64,000 nt of DNA from Bacilli bacterium. Lineage in GTDB: Bacteria > Bacillota_I > Bacilli_A > RF39 > UBA660. A program made the translations under genes and the position numbers. A model generated the notes under the pieces. The model did no database searches, was not told where the DNA came from, and worked only from the letters and a program-made list of their open reading frames with translations. The DNA is taken from NCBI GenBank assembly GCA_017536505.1, contig JAFXHG010000027.1, forward strand, positions 1,409 to 65,408, written 5' to 3'. Shown in pieces: positions 4,884-32,898 of the stretch. How positions within the stretch are numbered: the first letter of the stretch is position 1; each line of letters opens with the position of its first letter.

Positions 4884-4933
4884 TTGACAAAATAAAATTA
4901 TAATATTAAAATTAAATTGTAAATAAAAATTTA

Positions 4934-5029
4934 CCTTATTAAGAGTGATGGAGGGAAAGGCCCTGTGAAGTCCGGCAACCTATTTAAGTTAGGTGCTAAA
5001 TCCTGCGATGTTTATATCGAAAAATAAGG
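4934..5029 (+). promoter_or_regulatory. SAM-I (S-box) riboswitch aptamer upstream of metK
   Basis: P1 pairs CCTTATT (4934-4940) with AATAAGG (5023-5029). Conserved core: AAGAGTGATGGAGGGAAAGGCCCTGTGAAGTCCGGCAACC...GGTGCTAAATCCTGC. Confidence 0.9.
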
Positions 5030-5035
5030 ATAATC

Positions 5036-10015: not shown

Positions 10016-11149
10016 ATGAAAAAAATATTTATAGCCCTTTTTAGCTTATTAGTTTTACCATTTGTAGTAAGTGCAGAAGAAAAAGTATTTGGTGATATAA
10101 AATACACTATTGAAGAAATAAACCTTAAAGAATACGTATGTGAGGAAATTAAAGATCATGACCTGGAAATATTGCCATTTTCTGACAAGGAATTTTATGT
10201 TAATGATATAACTGATTCTAAAGTTTATATGGTTGATATAACTAACCCTGGTATTTGTATAGATTATAACACTATACAAACTCATCCTTATATGAGATTT
10301 ATTATTTGGGGAGATAATAATGAAATATATGAAAAACAATATGATCAACAATTTGTAGCTGGAATATACTATGTTCCTGATTTAGAATATAGAGAAGTAT
10401 TTACACGTGCTGAAGAACAATATGATGCATCAGCACCATATTATGAATTAGTAAATGAAGAAGCAATTAAAGTAACAAATCCAAATGAAACAGACTTTAA
10501 TAATGGCAATTATTTACTTCTTTTAGAACCAAATGAAGCAACTCTATTAGGAGAAATAGACCCAAGTTCTTTAGTTGCTCCAAAAGAAAAAACTGGATTA
10601 ACAAGTGATTTAACATTCGAAAAAGATAATTTAATTGGTGTTTTAACTTTTAATAATAAAAAATATTATGCATTCTATAATGAAACAGTAATTCAATATG
10701 CATTTATATTTGATGAGACTGGTAATTATGAAACATTTGGAAAAGATAAATTGTTAGTAGAAAATTTCTCTGCTTCAAGAAATGGAGAATATATACTTCT
10801 TACAAGTGAACAAGATGAAAAAATAGTATTAGAGGTATTTGATACAGCATATAATCTAATTTTCTCAAAAGAAGTAGACCATCATTCTATTCATTTTACT
10901 GGAATAAAAGATAATACTAATTATATTTATGTTGGTGATAATAATTATAAAGAATCAAAACTAATATCAATTACTAAAACAAAAATGGAACTAGAAATAG
11001 AAAAAGAACCAGAAATAGAAAAAGAACCAGAAATAGAAAAAGTACCAGAAACTTATGATGGAATAACAAATTCAATAGTTATTGGATTTATATCTTTGAT
11101 ATGCTTACTTGCAACAACATTAATATATAGAAGAAAAAAAGCTAACTAA
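10016..11149 (+). CDS. secreted surface protein with signal peptide, EIEKEP repeats and sorting-signal-like C-terminus
   Basis: Signal peptide MKKIFIALFSLLVLPFVVSA|EE. The C-terminus has VPETYDG, a hydrophobic stretch, then RRKKAN. Confidence 0.6.
   Translation: MKKIFIALFSLLVLPFVVSAEEKVFGDIKYTIEEINLKEYVCEEIKDHDLEILPFSDKEFYVNDITDSKVYMVDITNPGICIDYNTIQTHPYMRFIIWGDNNEIYEKQYDQQFVAGIYYVPDLEYREVFTRAEEQYDASAPYYELVNEEAIKVTNPNETDFNNGNYLLLLEPNEATLLGEIDPSSLVAPKEKTGLTSDLTFEKDNLIGVLTFNNKKYYAFYNETVIQYAFIFDETGNYETFGKDKLLVENFSASRNGEYILLTSEQDEKIVLEVFDTAYNLIFSKEVDHHSIHFTGIKDNTNYIYVGDNNYKESKLISITKTKMELEIEKEPEIEKEPEIEKVPETYDGITNSIVIGFISLICLLATTLIYRRKKAN
10988..11053 (+). repeat. 18-bp tandem repeat (3.7 copies) encoding (E/L)EIEKEP
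   Basis: GAACTAGAAATAGAAAAA / GAACCAGAAATAGAAAAA x2 / GTACCAGAAACT, read directly from the sequence. Confidence 0.9.
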
Positions 11150-12797: not shown

Positions 12798-12827
12798 AAA
12801 AAAGATGTATTAATTTACATCTTTTTT
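12798..12827. terminator. bidirectional terminator between convergent genes
   Basis: AAAAGATGTA-TTAATT-TACATCTTTT perfect 10-bp stem, flanked by A and T runs. Confidence 0.65.
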
Positions 12828-14067: not shown

Positions 14068-14925
14068 TTATTTATTTTCTATTTGTTTTTTATCATCTAT
14101 ATATTGATAATTTAAAGCATTTTGATTTGATATAGCCGATTTTTTAATTGCTTTCTCATAAGATTTTCTAGCATCATTAGCAACTTGTCCACCTTTACGA
14201 GCTACTTTCATATTTTCTTTAAATCCTTGTGGATGTTCAGATTCTGCTATATCACGAGTAGCGATTTCGCCTAAATCAGTAAGTAGAACTTCTATATCAG
14301 TCATATTATCTCGTAAAGATTCTTTTCTAATTCCTTTAAATTGTTTGTATTCATTTGCTTTCATACCTGACCAACTTTTATATATTTCATTAGTAAGCAT
14401 TGCATATTCGCGAGTTTTTTCAACGCCTCCATCTTTCCAAACATCAGTTAATCTTTTTCTTTCTTGAATGCCTTTAATTCTTTTAGAAATCCATGCCTCA
14501 TCATAACCTTTAGCACGATATGTATCTATTGCTCTTTGCATTGTTAATGATGGGTCAAACACTTCATCAATTCTTTCTTTACCTAAATGAGCTAACCATT
14601 GTTTTATAGGTTCAGCATTTTTACTAGGTACAGATTCAATTATTCTAAACATACCTTCAATATCACAAACATCAGTCATACGATATTTACCGTCAGTAGC
14701 TTTCAATTTCAACTGTCTAGTAATACTAGACGTTTCAAAATTTTCTTCTTTTAATAACTTATTTTTTAACCAATTCCAATATTTTCTAGGTTCTTTACTA
14801 TCAGCTAAAACACCAACAATATCAACGATACTAATATAATATTTTTCTTCATCCTTATCCCAAATAGTTCTAATTGTTTCATTGTTAAATATTTTATTAA
14901 TTAAATGCATATTATCTTGTTTCAT
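14068..14925 (-). CDS. Bro-N domain protein (DinD / phage antirepressor-like)
   Basis: The N-terminus ...FNNETIRTIWDKDEEKYYISIVDIVGVLADSKEPRKYWNWLK is Bro-N-like. The 285-aa DinD-type architecture fits. Confidence 0.6.
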   Translation of the reverse strand: MKQDNMHLINKIFNNETIRTIWDKDEEKYYISIVDIVGVLADSKEPRKYWNWLKNKLLKEENFETSSITRQLKLKATDGKYRMTDVCDIEGMFRIIESVPSKNAEPIKQWLAHLGKERIDEVFDPSLTMQRAIDTYRAKGYDEAWISKRIKGIQERKRLTDVWKDGGVEKTREYAMLTNEIYKSWSGMKANEYKQFKGIRKESLRDNMTDIEVLLTDLGEIATRDIAESEHPQGFKENMKVARKGGQVANDARKSYEKAIKKSAISNQNALNYQYIDDKKQIENK

Positions 14926-15058
14926 TTATTCACCATCCTTTACTATATATTTTTAATATGTATTAAAATATGTATTAAGCAAAAGGTTATAGAAGTGTAT
15001 AACCTCTCACTTATATTATTCTACAAAAGTTTTGAATTTCCTTTTTTATTTTTGAATT

Positions 15059-16672
15059 TTATTCAAAATTCCATTTAATTTCAATATCTCTTGTATTTGT
15101 TTCTTCATTGATTTTGCCGATATAGATTTTATCTACAAATTCATCTACTATAACTCTGTTTAATTTTTCTAATTGTTGATATTTATTAAATAATTCTTTT
15201 GTATTTTTATTTGAAGATTCTTTTAGTGTATAATAGTTAATCTCATTTTCAATAGATTTTAATTGGTCTTTTAACTTTTCATCATCATTATTATAATTAG
15301 TAATTAATTCTTTAAATTGTTCTGCATTAATTATTCCATTAACTTTATCTTCATAAAGATTTTTTAAATAATTTTTAGTCTTTGCCATTTGATTAACTAT
15401 GGTCTCTTTTTGTTTTGTTAATAAATTAATTCTTTTAGTGAACTTATTATTTTCTTTTTTCAAAGATTCTGTTTCTAAAATATTTAAATCATAAAACTTT
15501 TTAACTTTTTTGTTAATGTGACTTAATACTAATTCCTCTAAAGCATCATACCTAATCGCTGCTTTATTTATACAATCATTGTAACCATCTCTGTTATTAG
15601 AACATACAAGATATTCATGTTTAGAAGAATTCTTTTTTCTCATATAGCGACCACATTCTTTACAAAATACTTTGCCAGAGAAGTTATGAACAATTCCTGT
15701 TGATTTCATAGGTTTTGTTCTTTCTTTCAAAGCAATTTGAACTTTTGCAAATGTTTCCTCATCAATTATAGCTTCGTGCATATTTTCTCTACGAATCCAT
15801 TTATCTTCAGGTTTATTAATTACTTTATGATTTTTATAACTAACGGTAGTTCTTTTTCCTTGAATTAAATGTCCTAAATATAATTCATTTTTTAATATTG
15901 TTTTAATAGCATTTGTATTCCATTTAATTTCCTCTCTAGGTCTATTACTAATTACATTTAATTTAATACCTTTTCTATATTTATAAAGAGAGGGGCAAGG
16001 AATATTTTTATCATTTAAGTAATGAGATATTCCAGTAAATCCCATACCTTTTAAATATAAATCGTATATTTCTTTAACAACTTCACTAGCAACAGGATCA
16101 ACAACTAACTTGTTATTATCTTCTTTAGATACTTCATAACCAAATGAGGCGAAAGGAGAAATGAATTCTCCTTGCTTCATTTTTGAATTAAAAGCACTTC
16201 TAATATTATCTGAAACATCTTCTAAATACCATTCATTAACTAATCCATTTATTTGTCTTGATTTTTTATTACCGCTATTGTCAGTATCAGCATTATCAGA
16301 TAAACCGATAAATCTTATATTCCATTCTTTGAATTTATTGTTAATATACTTTTCAACGATTTCCATATCTCTTGAAAATCTAGATTGGCTTTTACATAAA
16401 ACTACATCAATTTTCCCATTTTCACAATCTCTAATTAATCTTTCAAATTCAGGTCTATAAGTACCAGCCCCCGATAAATCTTCATCACAATATTCATCAA
16501 CCAACATAAATTGTGGATTTTTATCGATATAATCTAGCAACATATTTCTTTGATTTTTAATAGATTCACTATCATCATCTTTATTAATTTTATCTCTATC
16601 TTCATTTGATAATCTTAAATAAATAACAACTCTTAATAATATCTTCTCTCTAACACTCTCCATTTCATTCAT
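15059..16672 (-). CDS. large serine recombinase (resolvase domain, recombinase domain, zinc ribbon, coiled coil)
   Basis: N-terminal VVIYLRLSNEDRD with the catalytic Ser. Cys cluster CKECGRYM...CSNN...C. Long C-terminal coiled coil. 537 aa. Confidence 0.9.
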   Translation of the reverse strand: MNEMESVREKILLRVVIYLRLSNEDRDKINKDDDSESIKNQRNMLLDYIDKNPQFMLVDEYCDEDLSGAGTYRPEFERLIRDCENGKIDVVLCKSQSRFSRDMEIVEKYINNKFKEWNIRFIGLSDNADTDNSGNKKSRQINGLVNEWYLEDVSDNIRSAFNSKMKQGEFISPFASFGYEVSKEDNNKLVVDPVASEVVKEIYDLYLKGMGFTGISHYLNDKNIPCPSLYKYRKGIKLNVISNRPREEIKWNTNAIKTILKNELYLGHLIQGKRTTVSYKNHKVINKPEDKWIRRENMHEAIIDEETFAKVQIALKERTKPMKSTGIVHNFSGKVFCKECGRYMRKKNSSKHEYLVCSNNRDGYNDCINKAAIRYDALEELVLSHINKKVKKFYDLNILETESLKKENNKFTKRINLLTKQKETIVNQMAKTKNYLKNLYEDKVNGIINAEQFKELITNYNNDDEKLKDQLKSIENEINYYTLKESSNKNTKELFNKYQQLEKLNRVIVDEFVDKIYIGKINEETNTRDIEIKWNFE

Positions 16673-17112
16673 AACTATTACCTCCTAACTTAAGGCAATA
16701 ATTACTTATCAAGTTAAACTTATAACCAATACAATTATACCATTTAATTACACTCATTTGTGCAAGTTTCCATAAATAATATAATATTTAACAACTTTTT
16801 ATTTATAATCTCTTTTAAATCGTTATCGGTTATAGTTTTATTTACTACTTCTTTAACATTATAGACTATATTTATAAAGCTCACCTCTAATTTAAATATA
16901 TTATTTAAAGTGTGATTTTAAACTAATATAGCAGTAATGTTTATTATTTTTGTACTTTGTTTTATTCATAATATCAATCCTCACTTTCGTTTTTACTTCT
17001 TTATACTTAGGGATAAAATTTTGGTACATTTTTCAATTTTTTTAAAATTTATAATATTTATATTTTATATATAGTTATTGCTACTTATAGTTTAAGAGAG
17101 AGAATTTATTAA

Positions 17113-18552
17113 TTACATTCCAATTTCAAAATCATCAGATTTATCTTTTTCTTTATCGTATTTTCTATTGATGTCATATGCATAACTTTCCATTTCATAG
17201 TAATTAATATCATCATCTTTATCATAATGAAGTCCAATCTTATGAGCCAATGCTCTGCAAATTTTATTGCAGAAGTTATACATTTTTTCTTTGAATTTAT
17301 CAAATTTTGCTTGTAAATTTTCTATTTGATTATTCAATATATCAATAACATCATTTAATCTATTTATTTCCTGTTTTTGTTCCTTAATAGTAGATTTTTG
17401 TTCTTTAATAAGCTCATTTCTTTTTATGAGTTCCTTATTGTTTCTAAAAGTATTATTTTCTTTTAATAATTTGTTTATTTCAATATCTTTATTTTTATTA
17501 TCTGTGTTTAAAACAACAACTTGTTTTTTTAAGTCTTTGGTATAATCAATAATCTTATTTACATCTTCTTCTTTATATCCTCCAAGTTTTCTTTTAGTGG
17601 GATTTAGTAGAGTATCTTTATCATTAGATTTATTAGCTGTTTCAAGCCCATTTTTAGAGTTTTCTATTACTCTTAATACATTTTCTTTTTCTTGCTTTAA
17701 TTCTTCTAATTCGGCATTTAATTCTTTAATTTGCCACTCAGTTTTAGTTTGATTTTCTACTTTACTTCCAATATCTCCACGATATAAATTAAAACCTCGT
17801 TTTGTTATAAAATCATTAAACTCATCTTGTAATTTACCAAAAGAATATTGACCACCTCGTTGTTTCCAAAACTCATCACAATTTAGAAATTTTTCTTTAA
17901 CTTCTGAATATATAATTTTACCATTTTCATCTCGAAGTAGTTTAGGTGTATAATTTATATTTCCATTAGCATTTACATGTTTTTCTTTAACAACATTACC
18001 ATCTTTGTCTTTTACATATTGTTTTCTTTTTACAGTATCAACAATAGGTAGAAAATATACTTGAAGATGAGGTGTATCTTCATCATAATGAATTTGTGCT
18101 AAAAGGATATTTTCTTCACCAACATAATCTTTTAGAAAGTCCATACAAGAATCAAAATAATATGATACAGTTTTAGGTATATCTTCTTTAGATTTGATCT
18201 CTGGTATTTTTACAATTTGACCTTTCTTTTTACCTTCATGATAAGTTCTACCACTATCTACAAATTTCATTCCAAGTGTTTCAAAAAATTCAGGTCCACT
18301 TGAGAATGTTATTCCATTAAACATATTGGTAGAGGGTTTATCATTAAATTCAATATTCCTATTTTTTAGCGTTTGTTTTATTTCTTGATATAAATTTTTT
18401 TCATTAAGTGAAACATATTCAACATTAAATTGTGTTCTTTCTTTATCATAATTTCCTGTTCCTTTTCTTTCACTCATTTCAACTCCAATATTATAAGCAT
18501 CATGTTTTTTATATTTACTTACTACTCGAACAACTTGATTTCCGTCATACAT
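17113..18552 (-). CDS. MobV (Mob/Pre) family relaxase
   Basis: IHYDEDTPHLQVYFLPIV matches the HxDExxPHxH-type motif III. The C-terminal coiled coil is typical of Pre/Mob proteins. Confidence 0.8.
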   Translation of the reverse strand: MYDGNQVVRVVSKYKKHDAYNIGVEMSERKGTGNYDKERTQFNVEYVSLNEKNLYQEIKQTLKNRNIEFNDKPSTNMFNGITFSSGPEFFETLGMKFVDSGRTYHEGKKKGQIVKIPEIKSKEDIPKTVSYYFDSCMDFLKDYVGEENILLAQIHYDEDTPHLQVYFLPIVDTVKRKQYVKDKDGNVVKEKHVNANGNINYTPKLLRDENGKIIYSEVKEKFLNCDEFWKQRGGQYSFGKLQDEFNDFITKRGFNLYRGDIGSKVENQTKTEWQIKELNAELEELKQEKENVLRVIENSKNGLETANKSNDKDTLLNPTKRKLGGYKEEDVNKIIDYTKDLKKQVVVLNTDNKNKDIEINKLLKENNTFRNNKELIKRNELIKEQKSTIKEQKQEINRLNDVIDILNNQIENLQAKFDKFKEKMYNFCNKICRALAHKIGLHYDKDDDINYYEMESYAYDINRKYDKEKDKSDDFEIGM

Positions 18553-18900
18553 TTTTTGCCTCCTTTCGTTATTGCATCTTTGTAAAAGAGGTCTTTTAGA
18601 CCTATCTCACTAGGGCATAGCCCAATCGTGAGTTTAGGTGATTCCCCTAAAGACCCCTTATGCTTGTTCTTCACAAATGCCTAAACTAATCGTAAAGGCA
18701 AATGCTACAAACAAGATCAAATAATAACTATCTACTAGATACTTATTATTTAATTAATTATTAAAAGTAGATAAACTACATTTAATAATTGTAAAAATAT
18801 TCGTTATCGCCACTTTCATTGCTAAAGCAACAAAACGTGCCACACTCATTTTTTACTTATATAACTTTTTGAAAAAAGTTAACAAAAACTTTTATGAAAA
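18553..18900 (-). promoter_or_regulatory. candidate oriT / structured leader upstream of the relaxase gene
   Basis: Locally G+C-richer stretch with several inverted repeats: AGGTC-TTTTA-GACCT, CTCAC..GGGC-ATA-GCCC..GTGAG and TTTAGG-N7-CCTAAA. It lies where MobV oriT sites normally sit. Confidence 0.35.
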
Positions 18901-19854
18901 TTATTCATTTTCAAATATTGGTTCTTCATACAATGCATGTTTTCTTCTTTTATCAGATTTTCTAGCATCAGTAATATAAAGTCCTTCTTTTTCAAGTACA
19001 TCTAAATTACTATACAATAATTTACCGAATACTGATGGTTTTATCATTAAACCTAGAGCACTTACAACTTCACTTGAAGTAAAGTCAAACTCTTTTTTTC
19101 TAATTGAGTAATTTAAAAATAACTTTAATTCTGATGGTAAATCTTCTTTTTCTAGTTCTGATATTTCATAAATTAAATTATCATTTCTTTTTAAAACTAA
19201 TTCCATCTCTGGATAATCTCTGCTGTCGTATTTTAAGAACAATTTATTTGGATAATTATTATCTTTTTTTAGAGTAATTATTCCATCAACAGCACCATCT
19301 ATAGCAGTACTTCCTAATGAAGTATTATTCTTATTTAAATGATGAATTAATAATATTGTAAATCCATATTTCTGACATAACTCTCTATATTTAGGAAATA
19401 CATATTGATTTATATCTTGATAATTATTTAAATCATATCCATTATTAACATCAACACCTGTAAACATATCAACTATAATAAACTTACCATTATGGTTAAG
19501 AGCAAAGTCTTGAAAAACTAATTGTAAGTCCATGTGATTAAGTTTTCTATCTTTTGATGCTTGATCTTCTATGAAAAAATTATCATCAGTAAAGTTTAAA
19601 TTCATCTTTTCAATTCGCTCACATATTTGCATTGAACTCATTTCTGTGCTAATATATAAGACAGGAGATGGATTTGTTTTAAATCCTAGAAATATTGTTC
19701 CGTTTGCGATTGAGTGAGCAAGTTGTAGTCCGAATAATGACTTGCCGACTTTAGGTCTTGCAACTAAACAATATATCCCACTAGATTTCATAAAGCTATC
19801 AACTATGAAATCTTTTTTTGTGTAATTTTTTTTAACTTCACTTATCGTTAGCAT
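18901..19854 (-). CDS. RecA-fold AAA ATPase (AAA_25 / RepA-DnaB-like; TnpY-analogue)
   Basis: Walker A ARPKVGKS and Walker B-like FIIVDMF. ATG 19854 follows AGGAGG. The track start 19875 is less likely. Confidence 0.65.
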   Translation of the reverse strand: MLTISEVKKNYTKKDFIVDSFMKSSGIYCLVARPKVGKSLFGLQLAHSIANGTIFLGFKTNPSPVLYISTEMSSMQICERIEKMNLNFTDDNFFIEDQASKDRKLNHMDLQLVFQDFALNHNGKFIIVDMFTGVDVNNGYDLNNYQDINQYVFPKYRELCQKYGFTILLIHHLNKNNTSLGSTAIDGAVDGIITLKKDNNYPNKLFLKYDSRDYPEMELVLKRNDNLIYEISELEKEDLPSELKLFLNYSIRKKEFDFTSSEVVSALGLMIKPSVFGKLLYSNLDVLEKEGLYITDARKSDKRRKHALYEEPIFENE

Positions 19855-19855
19855 T

Positions 19856-20086
19856 TTATTCCTCCTTTCTATCAAGTTTTTTTAAATAATCTATATCAAT
19901 ATTTAGATATTTAACAACTTCATTCATAGGAAGTAATTTATTAGGAATAGAGTTATTATTTAAGTTATTTTTAATATCTCGTTTTAATTTTAATAAATTA
20001 TTTTTTCCTAAACCTGTTAATTTTTTTAAATCTTCAAGAGAACACCATTGTTTTGAAATTACTTTTAATATTTCGTTTGGATTCAT
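19856..20086 (-). CDS. small HTH DNA-binding protein (possible excision factor or regulator)
   Basis: 76 aa. WCSLEDLKKLTGLGKNNLLKLK is HTH-like. It lies immediately upstream of the ATPase gene. Confidence 0.35.
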   Translation of the reverse strand: MNPNEILKVISKQWCSLEDLKKLTGLGKNNLLKLKRDIKNNLNNNSIPNKLLPMNEVVKYLNIDIDYLKKLDRKEE

Positions 20087-20357
20087 TTATTACCTCGCTT
20101 TCTTAATAGATATTTATAGATACTTGTTAAGCAATCTATCTATGGATGGTTTTAGTAATACCAACAACTCTCGTGCCAATAGAGATATCTAGCCTTGCAT
20201 TTTTTTACTTTATGGCATATCGGCGATTTCCACAAAGACTAAATTTTCAAAGAACAATTTTTCGTTGCACTTGTTTTTATCTCTGGTGCAACTTAACACC
20301 ATTATAGCATATCAAAAATGTATGTCAAGCATTTTAGCACCAATTTCTTTAAAAATG

Positions 20358-20386
20358 TTGCAATTTTGCTCCATTAGTGTTATAAT
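20358..20386 (+). promoter_or_regulatory. promoter of the XRE regulator gene
   Basis: TTGCAA (20358-20363), a 17-nt spacer ending in TGT, then TATAAT (20381-20386). Confidence 0.55.
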
Positions 20387-20409
20387 CGTTTGTGAAAGGA
20401 GTAATTCGT

Positions 20410-20925
20410 ATGACAACAAAGGTTGGAGAACTAATAAAAAAAGGTCGTGAAGAAAAAAATCTTTCTATGAGACAATTAGCTGAACTTGCAAAAGTAAGTC
20501 ATTCAGATATATCAAGAATTGAATCAGGAGAAAGAGAGGTTCCTAATCCTAAAATATTAAGAAAAATAAGTCAACATATAGGAATAAATTATAATGATTT
20601 AATGTATGCTGCAGGTTTAGGTTTTCAAGTCACAGATTTAAATCCATTTTTAAAAAGTTATTATAAAAGTCTTAAAGGAGAAGAATTAGAAGATGCTCTT
20701 GCTAATACTTCGGGAAGTATTATTACTTGGAAAAAATTAGTAGAATCATTTACTGAAAAACTTAAAGATGAAAGTTTATCTCCACAAGAAAGAGAAATAA
20801 TGGAGCAAACAATAGAAGATACAGAATATCAAATTAAAACAGCAGAAGAAATTGAAAGGTTATTAGTAAATATGAATTCTAAAGATTATAGAGAAAGGAA
20901 GAAAAACAAGAATGAAGAAGATTAG
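20410..20925 (+). CDS. XRE-family HTH regulator with C-terminal helical domain
   Basis: LSMRQLAELAKVSHSDISRIESGER is a classic HTH_3 motif. ATG 20410 follows AAAGGAG. Confidence 0.8.
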   Translation: MTTKVGELIKKGREEKNLSMRQLAELAKVSHSDISRIESGEREVPNPKILRKISQHIGINYNDLMYAAGLGFQVTDLNPFLKSYYKSLKGEELEDALANTSGSIITWKKLVESFTEKLKDESLSPQEREIMEQTIEDTEYQIKTAEEIERLLVNMNSKDYRERKKNKNEED

Positions 20926-21400
20926 AGATAGCATAATATACAAAATTATTCATGCAGATGATGAAAAAATTAATGCAATAACAATAGTTGTAGATGTTTT
21001 AATGGTAATTATATTTGCTTTAACATTAATTTTAAGAACAAATTTTATGTTTGGATTATATTGGATATCTATAATATTATTCTTAATAGTTGACTTAGTA
21101 TCAATTATACATTGGGATGTAGATGGATTAAAATCTGAAAAAAGTGAAAGTGATAAAATCATAAGAGGATTTAGAGATGCAACTGCAGTAACAATCATAT
21201 TAAGTGCTCTTGGATTTCTAGCTGTTATTTTTTTAAGAGAAATAAATGAAAATATAACTCAAAATCTTTATGTAATTATTGCATTATTCTGTTTATTAGC
21301 AATTACACAATTATTTAATAGATTAATGATACATTCTAATATTAAAAGTTCCGCAAAACATGCAAAAGAATTTTATATAAAAAATAACAAAGAAAAATAA
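20912..21400 (+). CDS. membrane protein (4 TM), overlaps the XRE gene by 14 nt
   Basis: Hydrophobic segments. No recognisable family. Confidence 0.45.
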   Translation: MKKIRDSIIYKIIHADDEKINAITIVVDVLMVIIFALTLILRTNFMFGLYWISIILFLIVDLVSIIHWDVDGLKSEKSESDKIIRGFRDATAVTIILSALGFLAVIFLREINENITQNLYVIIALFCLLAITQLFNRLMIHSNIKSSAKHAKEFYIKNNKEK

Positions 21401-21462
21401 AAAATGACAGAATGACAGATAAAAGTGGGTACCCACAAACTCCTGTCATTCCGTCATAAGAA

Positions 21463-21497
21463 AATAGTATGATCTAAATTTTCATACTATTTTTTTG
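21463..21497. terminator. bidirectional terminator
   Basis: AATAGTATGA-N9-TCATACTATT perfect 10-bp stem, with an A-run before and a T-run after. Confidence 0.6.
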
Positions 21498-21936
21498 TTT
21501 TACCACATAATTCATTTATAGAGATTTTAAATTCTTTAGCAAATTCATATAAGTTTTCAGTAGATATATAAACTCTGTCTTTCTCATATTTAACTATACA
21601 ACTTTGAGTTACTTTAAGAATATCTGCTATATTCTCTTGTGAAAGATTATTTTTCTTTCTAATTTCTTTCATATTGTTTGCTAGTATTTGTAAGTCCAAT
21701 CCTTTAATTAAATTCTTGCTATTTCTGTTATTTGTTAAGCCTAAAGCATAATCTAAAGTAATATTAAAATAATCTGCAAAATCACATAAAGGTTTTAAAG
21801 GAATAACACTTATACCTAGTTCCCACATTGAATAAGTAGAACGTGGAACACCTAATATTTTAGACATTGTTTCTTGATTTATATCATTATCTTCTCTAAT
21901 ATCTTTTAATCTTTGAAAATCTATCATAGCTACCAC
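21487..21936 (-). CDS. tandem-HTH XRE-family regulator
   Basis: Two HTH_3 units: QETMSKILGVPRSTYSMWELG and QENIADILKVTQSCIVKYEKD. Confidence 0.8.
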   Translation of the reverse strand: MVAMIDFQRLKDIREDNDINQETMSKILGVPRSTYSMWELGISVIPLKPLCDFADYFNITLDYALGLTNNRNSKNLIKGLDLQILANNMKEIRKKNNLSQENIADILKVTQSCIVKYEKDRVYISTENLYEFAKEFKISINELCGKTKK

Positions 21937-22058
21937 CTATAATAATTTTCCCATTTAAAATAAAAATATTGATATTCCGCTTATTTCAAGACTATTTTTT
22001 GCTGATTTGGTTATAATTTAATTGTAGTAAAAATAAAACTATTGAAAGGAAAATTTAA

Positions 22059-22460
22059 ATGCAAAGAGATTACTTGAAGAAAGACACAATACAAATAAGC
22101 CGAATGAAGAAACACTCGCTATTGTGGATTTATAGTTGCAGTGGTGAAATATATAAATTATTAAGTTTAGAAGTATTACATAAACTTGTTAAAAAAATAA
22201 AAAAAGGTACTATAAAATTAAATTCTAAATTACTTTATGAAAAAAATGAAATTACTTTAGAAGAAAATTTTGTATCTATATTAGATAAGTATATTGGTTA
22301 TGTTAGGGAGACTTATACAATAAATCACAATGAGCTTCTAATTATATTAGAACAAACTTTAAAAAATAACTATAATAAAGTACTATTTGTTGTTACTGAT
22401 TTTCATGAATGTCCAGAAATATTTTTAAATGGTTTTAAGAAAATGTTTTTAGCAAATTAA
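22059..22460 (+). CDS. hypothetical protein; frame stays open for 99 more codons after a single in-frame TAA
   Basis: The TAA at 22458-22460 is followed by an uninterrupted same-frame reading to the TAA at 22758-22760. Confidence 0.4.
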   Translation: MQRDYLKKDTIQISRMKKHSLLWIYSCSGEIYKLLSLEVLHKLVKKIKKGTIKLNSKLLYEKNEITLEENFVSILDKYIGYVRETYTINHNELLIILEQTLKNNYNKVLFVVTDFHECPEIFLNGFKKMFLAN

Positions 22461-22802
22461 GTTTATAATACTCGCTATTATGCTAAACAAGACACAAATA
22501 ATATTCATTATTCATTACAAAAAGCAAATTTATTTTTAGAATCAAAAAGTTTAAGCAATTCTAAAGATATTATAGAAATAGAAAAATTTTATATTAAGGT
22601 AATAAGTAATCGCAAAAGTAATTTATATAATATATTTTTGCCTCATAGTGAAATTGAAAAAAAACAGTTGTCTTTTTATTTTCATCAAGTAGATTGGATC
22701 TATGCTGATTATTATAAAAAAAATGATTCTATTTTTAAAGGTAGAAATAGTTATTTATAAAAATATATGATAAAATATTATTGTGCAGATTTATTGGTGG
22801 TG

Positions 22803-23240
22803 ATGTATGTGAAAGAATTATATCAAAAATATAAGGAAATTATTAATTATTTAATCTTTGGGGGGTTAACTACATTAATTAGTTTAATTGTTTATTATAT
22901 GTTGAGTTTGACTATATTAAATCCTAATGTTAGTGTAGAGTTACAGATAGCAAATCTTTTTTCATGGATAGCTGGAGTTTTATTTGCGTATTTTACAAAT
23001 AGAGCATTTGTATTTAATAGTAAAAATGAAAATAAATTTAAAGAATTTATTACTTTTACTGGTGCAAGAGTATCAACACTTTTACTTGATATGGTAATAA
23101 TGTTTTTGTTTGTAACTATGTTAAAAGGTAATGATAAAATATTTAAACTGGTAAGTCAGATATTAGTAATTGTAGGAAACTATTTATTAAGTAAATTAAT
23201 AGTTTTTAAGAAGGATAGTTATGAAAAATCTAGTAAATAA
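22803..23240 (+). CDS. GtrA-family membrane protein (lipid-linked sugar flippase candidate)
   Basis: YLIFGGLTTLISLIVYY...FSWIAGVLFAYFTNRAFVF is the GtrA signature. It has 4 TM segments. ATG 22803 is preferred over the track start. Confidence 0.75.
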   Translation: MYVKELYQKYKEIINYLIFGGLTTLISLIVYYMLSLTILNPNVSVELQIANLFSWIAGVLFAYFTNRAFVFNSKNENKFKEFITFTGARVSTLLLDMVIMFLFVTMLKGNDKIFKLVSQILVIVGNYLLSKLIVFKKDSYEKSSK

Positions 23241-25290
23241 AATGTTTAATTTTGTTAATAAATTCTTGTTAATTTTTACCATAATATGTTTTTCTATTTC
23301 TTTAATAGGAGCGATATTTTTCTATACTAATCGTAGTTATGATTATTTAAATCCATTAGTATTAATTGTTGGTTCAATTGTATATTTATTTTTATTAATT
23401 AAATTATATAAGGTTATTATCAAACTTGATGATAAGAAAAAGAAAATAATAGTAGGTATTTTATTAGGATTGCAATTTATCTTATTACTTATAAGTACTT
23501 TTGTAATTAGTAGTATTCCTCAAGTTGATTTAATACATATTTTAACCGAAATAAATAGTTTAAATGATACAGGTTCGATATTAAATAATGTTTACTATTC
23601 TGTTTATCCTAATAATAGATTTTTATTAATTATTTTATATGGGTTACAAAAGATTATTCCTATTAGCAATCAAATTTTATTTTCTTTACTAAGTACAATA
23701 TGTATTTCTGTTATGTCAATATTTACTTATAAAACTGTTAATAAAGTTTGGGATCTCAATAAAGGCTTATTAAGTTTATTTATATGTGTATTATCTCCAA
23801 TCTTTTATTTATATGTATCATATTACTATACAGATGTATTAATGTTACCATTTGCCAGTATTTTAATTTATTTAATAGTTAAAACAAAAGACGAAAAAAA
23901 TTTAAAATCTAACGTTCTATATGGCTTATTGACCGGTATCATTGCAATAATTGGTTATAAGATAAGGGCTGTTGCAATATTTATACTAGTAGCGTATTTT
24001 GTATATTTAATATTTACTAAAAAGATATTAATAGTGTTAAAGAAGTTTGCACCAATAATAATTGGGGCAATATTAACAATAACTTGTATTGGCACTATTG
24101 ATAATAATTTTTTCACAAATGTTAATGTTGATAAAGAATTTCCAATGACACATTGGATTATGATGGGAGTTAATGAAAAAAGTTATGGATATTATTCCCA
24201 AGATGATTATAACCTAAGTAGTAGTGCCTTAAACGTTTCAGAAAGAACAGATTTAAATATTAAAGAAATAAAAAACAGATTGAGTGATTTAGGTCCATTT
24301 GGAACAGTGAAATTATTAGTAGTTAAATTAGTTTCTGTTTGGGGTAAAGGAGATTATAGTTATCAAAAATATTTAGAATTAGTTAATGACTTTAATCCGT
24401 CTTATTCTTATTTATTAGAAGATAAAAATATTGTTATAAATTATTTATTACAGTTCTCTAAAATAGTAGTTATGTTTATGGCAATAATATCTCTTATTAA
24501 TATTTATAAAAGTGGTAAGAAATCAATTATAGCAATTAGCTTGTTTGGAGCAGTATTTTTCTATCTTGTTTGGGAAGTATGTCCACGATATGGTTTATCA
24601 TTCTTACCGTGGTTAATACTAATAGGTACATGTTCTTATGATACTTTATATACCAATTATGATAAATTCAAATTTTATAAATATTTTAAATGTATTATAC
24701 TAGTCTTAACTTTAGCATTATTTGCTTTTAGTTTTAATAAATATACAGGTATTAGTTATAAAGAAAATATAGTAGCAAAAGACAGTGTAACCAAGGTTAA
24801 GTATACTTCTTTAAATAAAGAAACGGTTATCACCCAAACATTAGATTTATATGATATTTTTAATAAAATAAGATTAAAATTTAAAGTTAATGAAATAGAG
24901 GATGCAACTTATAAGTTGGAGTTAATAACTAAAAATGAAGTTGTGTATGAAAAAGACTTTAAAAAAAATGATTTGAAAGATAAAAAATATACAGATTTTT
25001 ATTTAGATAAAACTTATGAAGGTGGTAGTTATACTGTAAGATTAAGTTCGGATAGTGCAAGTGATTTAGAAGTTTATATCGCATATAAAGAAAAATTTGA
25101 TTATTATCCGAATGGTATTTTAGAAGTGAATGGAAAAGAAGAAGCTGGCGATTTGATGTTTGAAGTAGTAAATAATGAAGAAAGAGGAATTTATACTTAT
25201 CTAGAATATATGACAATAATGATATTAACATTAGGCATAGAAGTTATAGTGTTATTTAGAAAGAAGGAAGAAGTAAATGAAGAAAAATAA
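23221..25290 (+). CDS. polytopic membrane protein, putative GT-C fold glycosyltransferase (GtrC / YfhO / GT39 analogue) with about 190-aa extracytoplasmic C-terminal domain
   Basis: At least 11 hydrophobic segments followed by a soluble tail and one last TM. It sits between the GtrA and GtrB genes and overlaps both. Confidence 0.5.
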   Translation: MKNLVNKMFNFVNKFLLIFTIICFSISLIGAIFFYTNRSYDYLNPLVLIVGSIVYLFLLIKLYKVIIKLDDKKKKIIVGILLGLQFILLLISTFVISSIPQVDLIHILTEINSLNDTGSILNNVYYSVYPNNRFLLIILYGLQKIIPISNQILFSLLSTICISVMSIFTYKTVNKVWDLNKGLLSLFICVLSPIFYLYVSYYYTDVLMLPFASILIYLIVKTKDEKNLKSNVLYGLLTGIIAIIGYKIRAVAIFILVAYFVYLIFTKKILIVLKKFAPIIIGAILTITCIGTIDNNFFTNVNVDKEFPMTHWIMMGVNEKSYGYYSQDDYNLSSSALNVSERTDLNIKEIKNRLSDLGPFGTVKLLVVKLVSVWGKGDYSYQKYLELVNDFNPSYSYLLEDKNIVINYLLQFSKIVVMFMAIISLINIYKSGKKSIIAISLFGAVFFYLVWEVCPRYGLSFLPWLILIGTCSYDTLYTNYDKFKFYKYFKCIILVLTLALFAFSFNKYTGISYKENIVAKDSVTKVKYTSLNKETVITQTLDLYDIFNKIRLKFKVNEIEDATYKLELITKNEVVYEKDFKKNDLKDKKYTDFYLDKTYEGGSYTVRLSSDSASDLEVYIAYKEKFDYYPNGILEVNGKEEAGDLMFEVVNNEERGIYTYLEYMTIMILTLGIEVIVLFRKKEEVNEEK

Positions 25291-26230
25291 TTTAGTATTA
25301 AATTTAGTTATACCTTGTTATAACGAAGAAGAAGCACTACCACTAACAAAAAAAGAACTTGATAAAAAAATGAGTAGTTTAATGGAAGAAGGTTTAATTA
25401 GTAAAAACAGTAAAGTGGTTTTAGTTAATGACGGTTCTAAGGATAAAACGTGGGAAATTATAACTAAGGTACATAAAGAAAATGATATGTACGTAGGAAT
25501 TAATTTAACTAGAAACAGAGGTCATCAAAATGCCTTGCTTGCAGGTTTAATGTATGCAAAAAATCACGCAGATATCTGTATTAGTATGGATGCTGATTTA
25601 CAAGATGATATTAATGTAATGGATGATATGATAAAAAAGTATAATGCCGGTGCTGATGTTGTTTATGGTGTTCGAAGTTCAAGAAAAAAAGATACATTCT
25701 TTAAAAAGTTTACTGCAGAATTTTTTTATAAATTAATGAATGTTATGGGTGTAGAAGTTGTATTTAATCATGCAGACTGTCGTTTAATGAGTAAAAGAGC
25801 TTTAGAAGGCTTAAGTGAGTTTAAAGAAGTTAATTTATTCTTAAGAGGTATAGTTCCTCAAATTGGATATAAAACTGATATTGCTTATTATGAAAGAAAC
25901 GAAAGAGTAGCGGGAGATTCTAAATATCCATTAAAGAAAATGTTAGCGTTTGCTATTGATGGAATAACTTCATTTAGTATAAAACCTTTAAGAATAATTA
26001 CTTCAATTGGATTTATTATTTTACTACTTAGTTTTGTAGTTTTGGTTTATTCTGTTATTATGAAATTAATTGGTAATACTGTATCTGGTTGGTCGTTTAT
26101 TGTTTGTTCAATTTGGTTAATAGGTGGTATTCAAACTCTATGTCTTGGTGTGATAGGAGAATATATTGGTAAAATATATAAGGAAACTAAAGCGAGACCT
26201 AGATATATCATTGAGTGTGTACTTGATTAA
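25277..26230 (+). CDS. GT2 polyprenyl-phosphate glycosyltransferase (GtrB / CsbB-like)
   Basis: VIPCYNEEEAL, VNDGSKDKT and DADLQDD motifs, plus two C-terminal TM helices. Confidence 0.85.
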   Translation: MKKNNLVLNLVIPCYNEEEALPLTKKELDKKMSSLMEEGLISKNSKVVLVNDGSKDKTWEIITKVHKENDMYVGINLTRNRGHQNALLAGLMYAKNHADICISMDADLQDDINVMDDMIKKYNAGADVVYGVRSSRKKDTFFKKFTAEFFYKLMNVMGVEVVFNHADCRLMSKRALEGLSEFKEVNLFLRGIVPQIGYKTDIAYYERNERVAGDSKYPLKKMLAFAIDGITSFSIKPLRIITSIGFIILLLSFVVLVYSVIMKLIGNTVSGWSFIVCSIWLIGGIQTLCLGVIGEYIGKIYKETKARPRYIIECVLD

Positions 26231-26251
26231 TGAGTATATAGGTTTAATTCA

Positions 26252-26290
26252 AAAACAAATCCCTAATAATACCTATTAGGGATTTGTTTT
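26252..26290. terminator. bidirectional terminator
   Basis: AAAACAAATCCCTAATA-ATACC-TATTAGGGATTTGTTTT, a perfect 17-bp stem. Confidence 0.75.
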
Positions 26291-26687
26291 ACTCATTATT
26301 CAGCAGAGAATAACAATAATCATATACTAACAAATGATTATTTATTTCATCGTTAATAACTTTATCTTTAAAATCATTTTCATATATATTAAATATCATT
26401 TCAATAGAGAAATGTTTTTTTTCTTTTTCAGTAAGTTCTAAATACTTGACTAAAAAGAATAATAAATGTTTATATTTACTAAAATTAGTTATTACTTTAG
26501 TATAATTTGGATCTAATATACTTAAAACTTGTTTTAATAAAATAATCATATCTCTTACATTAAAATCTACATTGAAATTTTTATTTTCTAACAAATAAAT
26601 TGCTAATCTAATTTTATCAATATCACTTAAATTATCATATTTTTGAATTAAGTCTATAACTTTTTGTGAATTTTTATCTAATAACAT
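26289..26687 (-). CDS. hypothetical protein (132 aa), last gene before the right element end
   Basis: ORF only. No recognisable family. Confidence 0.35.
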   Translation of the reverse strand: MLLDKNSQKVIDLIQKYDNLSDIDKIRLAIYLLENKNFNVDFNVRDMIILLKQVLSILDPNYTKVITNFSKYKHLLFFLVKYLELTEKEKKHFSIEMIFNIYENDFKDKVINDEINNHLLVYDYCYSLLNNE

Positions 26688-26738: not shown

Positions 26739-27179
26739 TTATTTGTGTGTATACAGTATTCGTAGAACCCTTTGTCTCATACCTCCTGATAAATTATCAG
26801 GATAACTATATATAAAATCTTTAAGACCATATGTATTTAATAAATTAATTACATGTTCTTTAGTTTCTTTATTTAGATTTTTGTTTATTTCAAGTCCAAG
26901 TAAGCAATTATCTAATATATTTCTCCATTCAAATAGTGAATCTTGTTGGAGCATATATCCAATTTTAGAACCTTTTTTTAATTTTATATCTCCACCAGAT
27001 TTTTCTTCTAATCCACAAAGAACAGAAAGAATAGTACTTTTACCACATCCACTAGGTCCAACAATAGCTACAAAATCACCTTCTTTTAAATTGAAAGTAA
27101 AATCCTCTACTGCTAAAGTTTCACCTTCTTTGGTATGATAAATTTTTTTTAAGTTTTTAATTTCTAAGACATTATCCAT
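26739..27179 (-). pseudogene. ABC transporter ATPase, N-terminal fragment (Walker A, Q-loop, signature), runs into element DNA and stops
   Basis: MDNVLEIKNLKKIY...GPSGCGKST...LSGGMRQRV, then the element-derived tail LRILYTHK and a stop. Confidence 0.9.
26745..26766. repeat. right terminal inverted repeat / att half-site
   Basis: GTGTGTATACAGTATTCGTAGA, the inverted partner of 13935-13956. Confidence 0.85.
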
Positions 27180-27318
27180 GAGAATGCCTCCCAACTATTT
27201 TATAGTATGAAAAATAGGGGATTTTGTTAATGATAAAGGTTGAACTTTTTTCATAAAAAAATATTATAAAAATAATATTGATGTGATATAATAAATATAG
27301 AATAAAGGAGTGATTGAA

Positions 27319-28008
27319 GTGAAAAAAATAATTTATTTAAGTTTAATACTGTTATTTATGTTTATTTATATACCTCAAATAAATGCGATGCCAATATATA
27401 TAAAAACATTAACTGGAACTAATATAACTTTAGAAGTTGAATCAAGTGATACAATAGAAGCTGTTAAATATAAAATACAAGAAAAGGAAGGTATACCAGT
27501 AAATCAACAAAGGTTAATTTTTGCAGGCAAAGAAATGGAAGAAGGAAGGTCTTTAGCTGATTATGGGGTTCAAAAAGAAAGTACAGTCCATTTGCTTTTA
27601 AGGTTAACTCAAAATTCTTTTAAAGTAGTATTTGATGCCAATGGTGGAATATTTAAAGAAAACAAAAACATTTATACTATTGAAGAATGGAAAAATGAAT
27701 ACGAAGGAACACTTGAAAAACCAACAAGAGAAGGATATACATTTAAAGGTTTTTATACTGAGAAGAGTGGTGGAACAAAATTTGAACTAATTTTAGCTGA
27801 ATCAGGTATAGATAGTGATATGACTTTCTATGCACAATGGGAAGAAAATCCAACTACTCAAAAACCAGAAGAAAATTCATCAATCCAAAATAAAGTAGAA
27901 AATCCTAATACATTAGATAATATTGAAAAAACAGTAGTAACTTTAATGCTTTCATTTATGATGTTACTAAGCTCTATTATATATTTTAAAAATAAAATAA
28001 GAAACTAA
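27319..28008 (+). CDS. secreted, membrane-anchored ubiquitin-domain protein (signal peptide, ubiquitin-like domain, Flg_new/Listeria-Bacteroides repeat, C-terminal anchor)
   Basis: GTG 27319 lies 8 nt after AAGGAG. Signal peptide [22 protein letters not shown]|M. Residues [73 protein letters not shown] align without gaps to ubiquitin 1-73. FDANGG...[11 protein letters not shown]...FYAQW is the Flg_new repeat. Confidence 0.85.
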
Positions 28009-28011
28009 TAT

Positions 28012-28045
28012 AAATACCCAATAAGAATATTTCTATTGGGTATTT
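28012..28045 (+). terminator. intrinsic terminator after the ubiquitin-like gene
   Basis: AAATACCCAATA-N10-TATTGGGTATTT, a perfect 12-bp stem. Confidence 0.6.
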
Positions 28046-28113
28046 ATATTTTAAAACAATATTGATAAAAAAATATATTTTTATTATAATGTAGATAGTA
28101 AGTAGGTGATAAA

Positions 28114-30154: not shown

Positions 30155-31036
30155 ATGGAAAAGGCAGTATTAATGTTAGATAATTTAAATGTAAGTCAAA
30201 AGGCTAATAGCGATTTCACTCATAAAGGAGATAAAGCCTTAGATTTGTCAGGAAAAGATACAGGTATAGAATCCTTAAAAGCACCATTTACAGGTATAAT
30301 AAAAAGAATATATACGAATACAAATTCAGTATGGTTAGAAAGTATAGATAAAGTAAAGTATGCTGATGGAACTATTGACTATATGACAGTTATGACAATG
30401 CATGATAATGATGTTTCAAATTTAAAAGTAGGAGATATTATAAAACAAGGAACTGTTTATTATGAGGAAGGGAGAAAAGGTTACACAACTGGAAACCATA
30501 TACATTTAGCAGTTGGAAAAGGCAAATTTACTGGTAATAGATGGTATTTAAATGATGATGGATCCTGGGTTATAAACAATCAATATGATGTATATAAAGC
30601 ATTATATTTATTTGATAGTGTTAATGTATTAAATAGTGGTGGTTATAATTGGATAAAAACAGATACATTAGTTGAAGATGAAGTTATAGATAATCAAAAT
30701 ACATATGAAGTAAAAAAAGGAGATAATTTAACAAATATAGCAAAAACTTATAATACTACAGTAACAGAATTAGTAAGATTAAATAATATAGCAAATAAAA
30801 ATTTAATATATGTAGGACAAATATTAAAGTTACCTACTTCAAATACTTATTTTAATAAATATAATGGAAATAGTGTATCTATAGTAGATGCTTTAAAAAG
30901 TATAAATGCAAATTACAGTTATGAATATAGAAGTAAAATTGCAAGTGCAAATAATATTAAAAATTATGCAGGTACAAGTGTTCAAAATAATCAATTATTA
31001 AATTTATTAAAAACAGGTAAATTAATTAAACCATAA
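30155..31036 (+). CDS. peptidoglycan hydrolase-like protein: M23/LytM-like N-terminal domain plus LysM domain
   Basis: The HKGD...GNHIHLAV pattern is HxH-type. [44 protein letters not shown] is LysM. Confidence 0.5.

Positions 31037-32277: not shown

Positions 32278-32898
<621 letters not shown>

Follow-up and report, generated by a model that had tools for sequence, protein, structure and literature searches.

Ubiquitin is usually treated as a hallmark of eukaryotes. The question raised by a gene at positions 27319–28008 of the DNA analysed here – 64,000 nucleotides of Bacilli bacterium sequence from contig JAFXHG010000027.1 (assembly GCA_017536505.1), hereafter the window, meaning the whole stretch – is what use a Gram-positive bacterium would make of a ubiquitin domain carried outside its own cell. 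The preliminary description of this DNA, made from the letters alone, had noticed a ubiquitin domain lying directly behind a signal peptide, at the N-terminus of the mature protein. Our analysis leads us to regard the product, with reasonable rather than strong confidence, as a surface-displayed, ubiquitin-tipped ligand or mimic that is held by an NPNTLD-type signal, and not as a protein modifier. The gene and its parts are as follows.

27319–28008, + strand: coding sequence of 229 amino acids plus stop, in the order signal peptide, ubiquitin, Flg_new, linker, sorting signal
27319–27387, + strand: signal peptide, residues 1–23 (MKK, hydrophobic core, PQINA), from hydropathy, with predicted cleavage between A23 and M24
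27388–27606, + strand: ubiquitin domain, residues 24–96, corresponding to ubiquitin 1–73 (PF00240, identities, predicted fold)
27607–27615, + strand: TQN in place of ubiquitin R74-G75-G76, from alignment to ubiquitin
27619–27837, + strand: Flg_new domain (Listeria–Bacteroides repeat, or InlB B-repeat type), residues 101–173 (PF09479, TIGR02543)
27856–27909, + strand: linker, residues 180–197, of variable length in the family (predicted local distance difference test score, pLDDT, below 50; family alignment)
27901–27918, + strand: NPNTLD, residues 195–200, a candidate sortase-B-type motif of the form NPxTxD (family conservation)
27931–27987, + strand: hydrophobic segment, residues 205–223 (Kyte–Doolittle mean 2.04; helix at 199–228 in the model)
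27988–28005, + strand: basic tail KNKIRN, residues 224–229 (basic cluster kept in the family)

The protein belongs to the ubiquitin sequence and fold family (PF00240). Both Pfam models that bear on its architecture score above their curated cutoffs: PF00240 over residues 26–96 (E=1.2e-26; 92.7 bits against 25.4) and PF09479 over residues 101–173 (E=1.4e-11; 44.8 bits against 27), the latter as a single domain fused to the ubiquitin, as had been proposed, and joined by a match to the NCBIfam model TIGR02543 (28.8 bits against 20.95). When compared with solved ubiquitin chains, residues 24–97 align gapless to ubiquitin 1–74 with E of about 1e-30. Direct counting gives 53/76 identities to human ubiquitin, exactly the number that had been counted by hand, or 53/73 (73%) over the gapless stretch; plant-type ubiquitin shares 54/73. 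The five residues singled out in the preliminary description – L8, I44, K48, K63 and H68 – are all present, as are K6, K27, K29, K33, R42, R72 and L73, such that every ubiquitin lysine but K11 is found in the domain. Substitutions comprise K11 to T, V70 to L, and R74-G75-G76 to T-Q-N. The last of these, together with the conclusion already drawn from it that the domain is not conjugatable in the manner of ubiquitin, holds: there is no Gly-Gly (or Gly) C-terminus for E1 activation, the chain running on through TQN into Flg_new, with 130 further residues (Flg_new, linker and anchor) beyond the 76 ubiquitin-aligned positions. The hydropathy profile shows two hydrophobic segments, one at each end (residues 1–28 and 204–224).

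Structure prediction leads to the same place. An AlphaFold2 model, built on an alignment of 44 members of the protein family described below, gives the ubiquitin part a pLDDT of 84–93 and predicts the order beta-beta-alpha-beta-beta-3_10-beta; the Flg_new domain is modelled with confidence, residues 180–197 are predicted to be disordered, and a helix is predicted at 199–228. Foldseek superposes the model on mono-ubiquitin with a root-mean-square deviation of 0.6–0.8 Å over 73–75 residues and a TM-score (normalised by target length) of 0.93–0.98. The top-ranked matches are linear di-ubiquitins, aligned over about 165 columns, and because the alignment extends this far the Flg_new domain itself reads as beta-grasp-like in the model, which agrees with the beta-grasp-like structure of the InlB B-repeat (PMC8900821). 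The E-values, together with the superposition of the predicted structure on mono-ubiquitin, exclude chance resemblance. Comparison with BfUbb, the secreted ubiquitin of Bacteroides fragilis, gives just 40/76 identities (the BfUbb sequence used aligns end to end with PDB chain 8hm3_A, scoring 166.7 bits), as against 53/76 for human ubiquitin; the window domain is thus not derived from BfUbb. By membership, then, the protein is neither a conjugatable modifier nor a free toxin of the BfUbb type.

Is the gene genuinely bacterial? The preliminary description had pointed to AT-rich, host-like codon usage and to ordinary bacterial genes on both sides, and had argued from these against contamination and for an old acquisition. 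That argument is now considerably stronger. The exact protein occurs on four independent assemblies (two from ENA, two from Logan, one of them a 188.5-kb scaffold), all from the sample series XIEF21-1 / SAMN158300xx, and always with identical neighbours; a variant with 99% identity (P0029) lies on a fifth contig. A chimeric join at 27.2–28.1 kb, which had been named as a possible ground for refutation, is ruled out by these shared neighbours. GC content at third codon positions (GC3) is 13% in the ubiquitin part, in a window of about 25% GC that also encodes a PolC-type DNA polymerase III, FeoB and ATP-binding cassette (ABC) transporters and holds an S-adenosylmethionine (SAM) riboswitch. Among species-representative genomes the best match is a metagenome-assembled genome (MAG) recorded as Goat_Colon, Bacilli bacterium RGIG2062 (locus L006), in which the gene occupies the equivalent position: an ABC-transporter ATPase gene lies on one side of it, and downstream come the genes that also follow it in the window. 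The two ubiquitin proteins are 76% identical in amino acids and the flanking orthologs 71–95%. The ratio of nonsynonymous to synonymous substitution (dN/dS, by Nei–Gojobori, window gene against its L006 ortholog) is 0.161 for ubiquitin, 0.162 for Flg_new, 0.13 for the signal peptide, 0.34 for linker plus anchor and 0.205 for the whole gene, values that indicate purifying selection over its entire length. Four assemblies with the same flanks, a syntenic ortholog, a GC3 of 13% and a dN/dS of about 0.16 together establish that this is a resident and not a chimeric gene: a genuine, long-resident gene of a low-GC Bacillota bacterium, so far uncultured, from the ruminant hindgut.

Neither is it alone. 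A search with the full-length protein was overrun by eukaryotic polyubiquitin, with P0029 the one useful match, and the family was collected with the C-terminal 133 amino acids instead. Drawing on ENA, Logan, JGI and NCBI, this search returned proteins that group, at 90% identity, into at least 65 clusters. Almost all of these have PF00240 plus PF09479 and a length of 195–232 amino acids; they are 48–98% identical to the query part, or 48–76% leaving out the near-identical P0029. In a cluster look-up none of the 65 carries a name. The same C-terminal part run against representative genomes produced 787 matches at E<1e-30, giant multi-repeat Flg_new proteins that added nothing to the family, and a scan of viral contigs with the family alignment found no member, so that the gene is not phage-borne in that collection. 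Stated origins of the family records are herbivore guts (goat colon, water-deer rectum, the XIEF21 series), and some hosts carry spore-coat genes (CotJB, a Mn-catalase-type gene).

The features conserved in this family, as judged from the 44-sequence alignment, bear directly on how the protein would be processed. The signal peptide consists of MKK and a hydrophobic core ending in [I/V]-x-[A/G], after which comes ubiquitin Met1. At least 90% of the sequences have A23, and at least 90% have M24; position −1 is A or G and position −3 I or V, and cleavage would be expected between A23 and M24, leaving the ubiquitin domain at the mature N-terminus just as first described. Identity of the family's ubiquitin domains to human ubiquitin is 58/73 at most and 34/73 at least. 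Invariant or nearly so are M1, I3, E16, V17, E18, S20, D21, T22, I23, E24, K27, K29, I30, Q41, L43, F45, G53, R54, T55, L56, D58, Y59, T66 and L69, while Gly occurs at positions 75/76 in 0–2% of sequences. Other positions drift, among them K48 (52%), K11 (11%), R42 (30%) and R72 (20%). Constraint in the family thus looks to be both relaxed and shifted, with E16, E18, K29 and the R54–D58 region fixed and the patch around I44 drifting. Two members further suggest that ubiquitin modules have been swapped between surface proteins: in P0154 the ubiquitin domain belongs to another gut-Clostridia type, and P0194 is a mosaic.

The C-terminus was described at first as an anchor. That much stands, and the family alignment refines it: the region is a tripartite sorting-type signal, of motif, hydrophobic stretch and basic residues, and more than a membrane helix. 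None of the 44 sequences departs from P196, T198 or D200, and at least 90% of them have N195; about 19 hydrophobic residues and a basic cluster follow. Class B sortase substrates carry an NPxTx pattern (NPQTN, NPKTG), and the window protein has NPNTLD as an NPx[TS]x-type motif, residues 205–223 as the hydrophobic stretch and KNKIRN as the basic tail. The isolated tail weakly matches the C-terminus of IsdC, where the signal is NPQTN (E=0.006; range 0.006–0.06), and the C-terminus shows a weak match to EF0750_LPXTG, a family of sortase-dependent surface proteins (E=0.003). Two relatives add the enzyme itself. On its contig (GCA_052841605.1; L090) P0179 adjoins a divergently transcribed gene for a class B sortase (TIGR03064; 168.3 bits, cutoff 153.75). 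The arrangement recurs in a water-deer Bacilli MAG (L007), where a sortase 78% identical to the first is the divergent neighbour of a 330-amino-acid protein with signal peptide, ubiquitin, Flg_new and an NPKTFD signal. The short NCBIfam models for sortase-type signals mostly fail to score, and the assignment to sortase is one of motif conservation and gene neighbourhood.

The family proves to be part of something larger. A scan of one genome per bacterial or archaeal species with ubiquitin-derived patterns found at least 364 loci that encode a relative; the figures that follow refer to the best 80 of these. At 55 of the 80 a signal-peptide-like segment directly abuts ubiquitin Met1 (MQIF...), with A (47), G (7) or S (2) at position −1 of the junction and A (30) or V (16) at position −3. 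Among the 55 are loci that lie on complete chromosomes (Cohnella sp. WGS1546, Paenibacillus sp. FA6) or on megabase contigs (Dyella humi). Measured against eukaryotic ubiquitin, the domains have a median identity of 68/73, or about 93%, while GC3 ranges from 12% to 95% and tracks the GC content of the host locus, in hosts of 25–72% GC (for example L011, L052, L042, L033, L083, L008, L036 and L015, within L006–L085). Because protein identity stays near 93% while GC3 follows the host, the wider-class genes are resident and under very strong constraint at the level of the protein. Seventeen of the 80 are tiny contigs of eukaryotic polyubiquitin, that is, contamination, and a few others lack a signal peptide. 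The part after ubiquitin differs by lineage, and is a device for surface anchoring or surface repetition; taken together, these genes use nearly all known kinds of surface anchor:

Cohnella, Paenibacillus and other Bacillota: fn3 or immunoglobulin-like domains plus SLH
Methylotenera: an autotransporter beta-domain, with similar C-termini elsewhere
Synergistaceae MAG: three Flg_new domains, leucine-rich repeats and a Cys-rich C-terminal signal
Methanothrix MAG: SdrD_B, Cna_B and DUF11 repeats
Clostridia: xPxTG or NPKTFD plus a hydrophobic stretch
Burkholderiaceae MAG: IPTL-CTERM (TIGR04174, 43.9 bits against a cutoff of 20.5)
KSB1 MAG: tail of the type IX secretion system (TIGR04183, 43 bits against a cutoff of 23)
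further members: dockerin-like repeats
Dyella and Pedobacter: nothing after ubiquitin, hence a free secreted ubiquitin like BfUbb

In several members LRLRGG is still present ahead of the fused part. The window gene is the ruminant-gut Bacilli version of this prokaryote-wide design, in which ubiquitin forms the N-terminus of a surface protein.

The wider class as a whole makes the case that display of ubiquitin at the cell surface is itself the selected trait; fold stability alone leaves conservation this close to perfect unexplained. An identity of about 93%, maintained while codon usage has become fully adapted to the host, implies that some partner outside the bacterial cell reads the surface of ubiquitin. 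We tentatively take a further step: it is possible that display of near-unchanged eukaryotic ubiquitin is a widespread prokaryotic strategy for engaging the ubiquitin-recognising machinery of eukaryotes such as grazers, hosts and fungi, found as it is in Bacillota, Pseudomonadota, Bacteroidota, Verrucomicrobiota, Actinomycetota, Synergistota, the candidate phylum KSB1 and at least one methanogen. The strong purifying selection might then be imposed by ubiquitin-recognising partners and the anchors be lineage-specific, with the window gene a ruminant-gut Bacilli branch diverging toward a new ligand; this elaboration we hold just as tentatively. Identification of the partner would open a testable question on interactions between microbes and eukaryotes or among microbes, and would be relevant where anti-ubiquitin cross-reactivity has been claimed (antigenic mimicry, PMC6194340).

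Some observations on the same scan belong here. The contaminant contigs are shorter than 1.3 kb and carry plant- or fungal-type polyubiquitin in assemblies of cultured bacteria and of one haloarchaeon (L047, L048, L051, L055, L057–L059, L067, L068, L070–L073, L076, L078–L080, L082, L084); such contamination of public genomes would inflate naive counts of 'bacterial ubiquitin'. An Oscillospiraceae MAG has two tandem genes for signal peptide plus ubiquitin, the second much diverged (L040, 7949–9750), and a Burkholderiaceae MAG encodes two tandem ubiquitin domains with no recognisable signal peptide (L027, 7979–8611).

The phylogeny that had been recommended was built by neighbour joining from 72 residues of the ubiquitin domains. 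It places the window domain beside those of gut-Bacillota proteins of the signal-peptide-plus-ubiquitin type (L007, L012, L025 and L026), a weak observation that sits alongside three residues common to the same set (N12, S19 and A25, in one 16-residue stretch). It does not answer the question of origin: the base is unresolved, with eukaryotic references outside the family clade in only 11/50 bootstraps, and neither the ubiquitin donor nor the number of acquisitions can be decided from 72 residues.

How might the protein work? We suggest that the precursor is exported by the Sec pathway and that signal peptidase I cuts after Ala23, which would make Met1 of a eukaryote-derived ubiquitin domain the free N-terminus. 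That domain would be carried on one Flg_new domain, itself predicted to be beta-grasp-like, and on a flexible linker. NPNTLD, the hydrophobic stretch and the basic tail would retain the protein at the surface, most likely through wall linkage by a class B sortase; otherwise the C-terminus would be a membrane anchor. The ubiquitin tip might then engage a partner on another cell, be it a rumen eukaryote, the host or another bacterium. Host interaction and bacterial competition, the roles suggested in the preliminary description, are possible functions. That the protein is not a modifier follows from the missing RGG tail and from the lack of an E1, E2 or deubiquitinase partner; that the tip is a ligand or mimic directed at another cell we infer.

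A number of observations weigh against this proposal. On the side of the anchor, no sortase is encoded within the 64-kb window or at the syntenic locus in L006. NPxTxD is not among the sortase motifs described: L, F or G occupies the fifth position, where N or G would be the rule, and the invariant Asp at position 6 is non-canonical. The NCBIfam srtB_target model does not score the window protein. On the side of the tip, Flg_new is better conserved in the family than ubiquitin, and the functional centre of the protein may therefore lie outside the ubiquitin domain. The very patch by which ubiquitin is recognised drifts (L8 55%, I44 70%, H68 50%, V70 25%). Because this I44-type patch is eroded and identity falls to 34/73, mimicry toward eukaryotic ubiquitin-binding domains cannot be a conserved function of the whole family, whose partner is perhaps no longer a classical ubiquitin-binding domain. 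The window's own copy nonetheless retains L8, I44, H68, K48 and K63. As for the anchor, we consider covalent attachment to the wall by sortase B somewhat likelier than the alternative, which is plain membrane anchoring by the C-terminal helix.

Two rival accounts accept an exposed ubiquitin and differ from ours in what it is for; we regard both as unlikely, and as close to equally so. The domain could be a weapon after the manner of BfUbb, a ubiquitin toxin that binds an essential envelope protein of competitors (for instance a peptidyl-prolyl isomerase) and acts on contact from the surface or once cut off its anchor. The bacterial ubiquitins characterised to date, BfUbb and BoUbb, are indeed toxins with a signal peptide that act on a periplasmic peptidyl-prolyl isomerase (PMC5705921, PMC11467351), and free signal peptide plus ubiquitin forms exist in Dyella and Pedobacter. 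The gene has also diverged in the way of surface proteins (76% between window and L006, as against 88–94% for housekeeping neighbours), which, like the mosaics P0154 and P0194, is typical of conflict genes. However, no conserved adjacent immunity-like gene was found in any context examined; the window protein is tethered, not free, lacks the BfUbb C-terminus DVDC and shares just 40/76 residues with it; and a dN/dS of 0.16 gives no sign of diversifying selection. Alternatively, ubiquitin could be a stable, fast-folding N-terminal cap or spacer with no specific ligand, recruited for its ready folding after Sec export and for the protection it gives the N-terminus, with Flg_new as the functional part. 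One 26-residue stretch of Flg_new is the best-conserved part of the family, and the ubiquitin residues retained there belong mostly to the core or its capping (I3, V17, I23, K27, I30, L43, L56, Y59, L69) while the I44 patch drifts. With Flg_new beta-grasp-like (PMC8900821) and the model aligning to di-ubiquitin over some 165 columns, ubiquitin may simply replace a repeat unit. Against a cap stands the wider class, where ubiquitin is about 93% identical in hosts of 25–72% GC with adapted codons: this constraint lies far above what the fold needs, the window family itself tolerating 47% identity. Moreover E16, E18 and K29 are exposed and invariant in the family.

Two further explanations we consider extremely improbable. 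The first would make the gene an artefact – eukaryotic contamination, an assembly chimera or a decaying pseudogene – and it is true that many tiny contigs in bacterial assemblies do carry contaminant polyubiquitin. What removes the window gene from their number is its identical context in four assemblies, its syntenic ortholog in another species, its 65-cluster family, its GC3 and dN/dS, and its in-frame fusion to bacterial domains. The other would enlist the protein in a bacterial ubiquitin-like conjugation or defence system of the Bil, Bub or CBASS-Cap2 type (CBASS being the cyclic-oligonucleotide-based antiphage signalling system), with which it has the beta-grasp ubiquitin fold in common; yet it is exported by a signal peptide, has no C-terminal Gly, and is accompanied by no E1, E2 or JAB protein in the window or at any related locus.

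The signals around the gene are consistent with independent expression.

27284–27292, + strand: putative extended −10 element, TGaTATAAT, read from the sequence
27304–27310, + strand: Shine–Dalgarno sequence AAAGGAG, 8 nt 5′ of the GTG at 27319, read from the sequence
28007–28050, + strand: hairpin followed by a U-run, intrinsic-terminator-like (−19.8 kcal/mol, z = −6.3)

The open reading frame on the + strand ends at 28008 and could start at 27310 or 27319. The latter is the likely start, because the Shine–Dalgarno sequence lies 8 nt upstream of it and overlaps the GTG at 27310; in addition, MKK occurs at the matching start position in most family relatives. The −10 element is not listed by a consensus promoter scan, which requires a −35 hexamer. 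The hairpin is the sole terminator-like match of the region, in a scan that lists the inverted repeat on the opposite strand, and the next gene has a strong, near-consensus promoter-like site of its own at 28062–28090. From the promoter element, the hairpin after the stop and this separate downstream site, the gene looks like a single-gene transcription unit.

Genomic context is conserved among close relatives only. Neither in the window neighbourhood nor in about 12 related genomic contexts did we find an E1, an E2, a deubiquitinase/JAB, an obvious immunity gene or any other partner gene that is conserved. Contexts from three diverged subgroups of the family (L086–L088, L091, L096–L097) have a downstream operon in common – a GntR regulator, an ABC ATPase (AAA_21) and a 263-amino-acid protein – which could reflect lineage synteny or a functional link. 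A mobile element bearing a toxin gene lies within a few kilobases of the ubiquitin gene of P0155, at positions 12809–16666 of L089; it encodes a 583-amino-acid protein with an ADP-ribosylating exotoxin domain, along with a Mob_Pre relaxase, TnpV and a serine recombinase.

Within the window the gene has a mobile element for a neighbour. An integrative mobilisable element of about 13 kb, absent from L006, occupies 14068–26687; it adjoins the ubiquitin gene and excludes it. Its recognisable genes include the following.

15059–16672: serine recombinase
17113–18552: Mob_Pre relaxase
18901–19875: AAA_25/DnaB-like gene

It also holds a Bro-N gene, helix-turn-helix genes, and GtrA, PMT_2 and GT2 glycosylation genes, and it has shortened the ABC ATPase gene at 26739–27194 from 248 to 151 amino acids. 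A candidate arrangement in which the ubiquitin gene lay inside an 8-kb insertion splitting the ABC transporter operon was rejected, the gene being syntenic in L006 and the insertion separate. Farther off, 32278–32898 (− strand) forms an island of 42–50% GC in a genome of about 25%; it encodes 206 amino acids with collagen triple-helix repeats (PF01391, E=1.8e-16), and its L006 ortholog is just 47% identical. The SAM riboswitch (RF00162, 81.3 bits) lies at 4933–5030 (+ strand), upstream of a 381-amino-acid open reading frame at 5092–6237. Two genes of the window are absent from the otherwise collinear L006: one for a LysM-domain protein of 293 amino acids at 30155–31036 (+ strand), the other for a 377-amino-acid protein with no Pfam match at 10016–11149 (+ strand).

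What is known of related systems sets the locus in relief. BfUbb of Bacteroides fragilis and, since 2024, BoUbb of B. ovatus are free, secreted, eukaryote-like ubiquitin toxins (PMC3352274, PMC5705921, PMC11467351). The preliminary description took BfUbb to be the sole bacterial precedent, which is fair to the literature we searched and not to the genomes, given at least 65 family clusters and the wider class beyond them. In that literature, from which most subscription journals were outside coverage, we found no description of surface-anchored ubiquitin fusions or of eukaryote-like ubiquitin in Bacillota or outside Bacteroides. The parallels with BfUbb and BoUbb are nonetheless close: ubiquitin from a gut bacterium, a signal peptide for signal peptidase I, Met1 at the start of the mature protein, no GG tail and no conjugation (PMC3352274, PMC5705921, PMC11467351). 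BfUbb, however, is a free, diffusible, 76-amino-acid Gram-negative toxin that ends in DVDC and is imported via the SusCD-type ButCD, whereas the window protein is tethered, multidomain, from Bacillota, and nearer to eukaryotic ubiquitin (53/76) than to BfUbb (40/76). With eukaryotic ubiquitin it shares 73% identity, an identical predicted fold, all lysines bar K11 and, in the window copy, the L8/I44/H68 patch; it differs in being predicted to be extracellular, fused and anchored, in having TQN for RGG, and in the absence of conjugation machinery at the locus. Bil/Bub and CBASS Cap2 systems likewise involve a beta-grasp protein in a bacterium (Pup does not), but these systems are cytoplasmic, have little sequence in common with ubiquitin, carry a C-terminal Gly and are encoded together with E1/E2/JAB enzymes, none of which holds for the window protein.

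The remaining likenesses are to Gram-positive surface proteins. As in sortase-B substrates such as IsdC, the C-terminus consists of an NPxTx motif, a hydrophobic stretch and a basic tail, and a sortase B adjoins two relatives. The differences are an Asp that never varies at position 6 of the NPxTxD motif and an unrelated cargo, which has no NEAT domain. Listeria internalins also carry Flg_new (PF09479/TIGR02543) in a surface protein, and the window protein gives weak matches to the B-repeat regions of InlA and InlH; in contrast to the internalins it has no leucine-rich-repeat internalin domain, just one Flg_new, and ubiquitin as its N-terminal module. That bacteria export eukaryote-like ubiquitin was known already; what the literature we searched does not describe is the anchored, multidomain form, which points to another use for this protein, as the exposed tip of an anchored Gram-positive protein.

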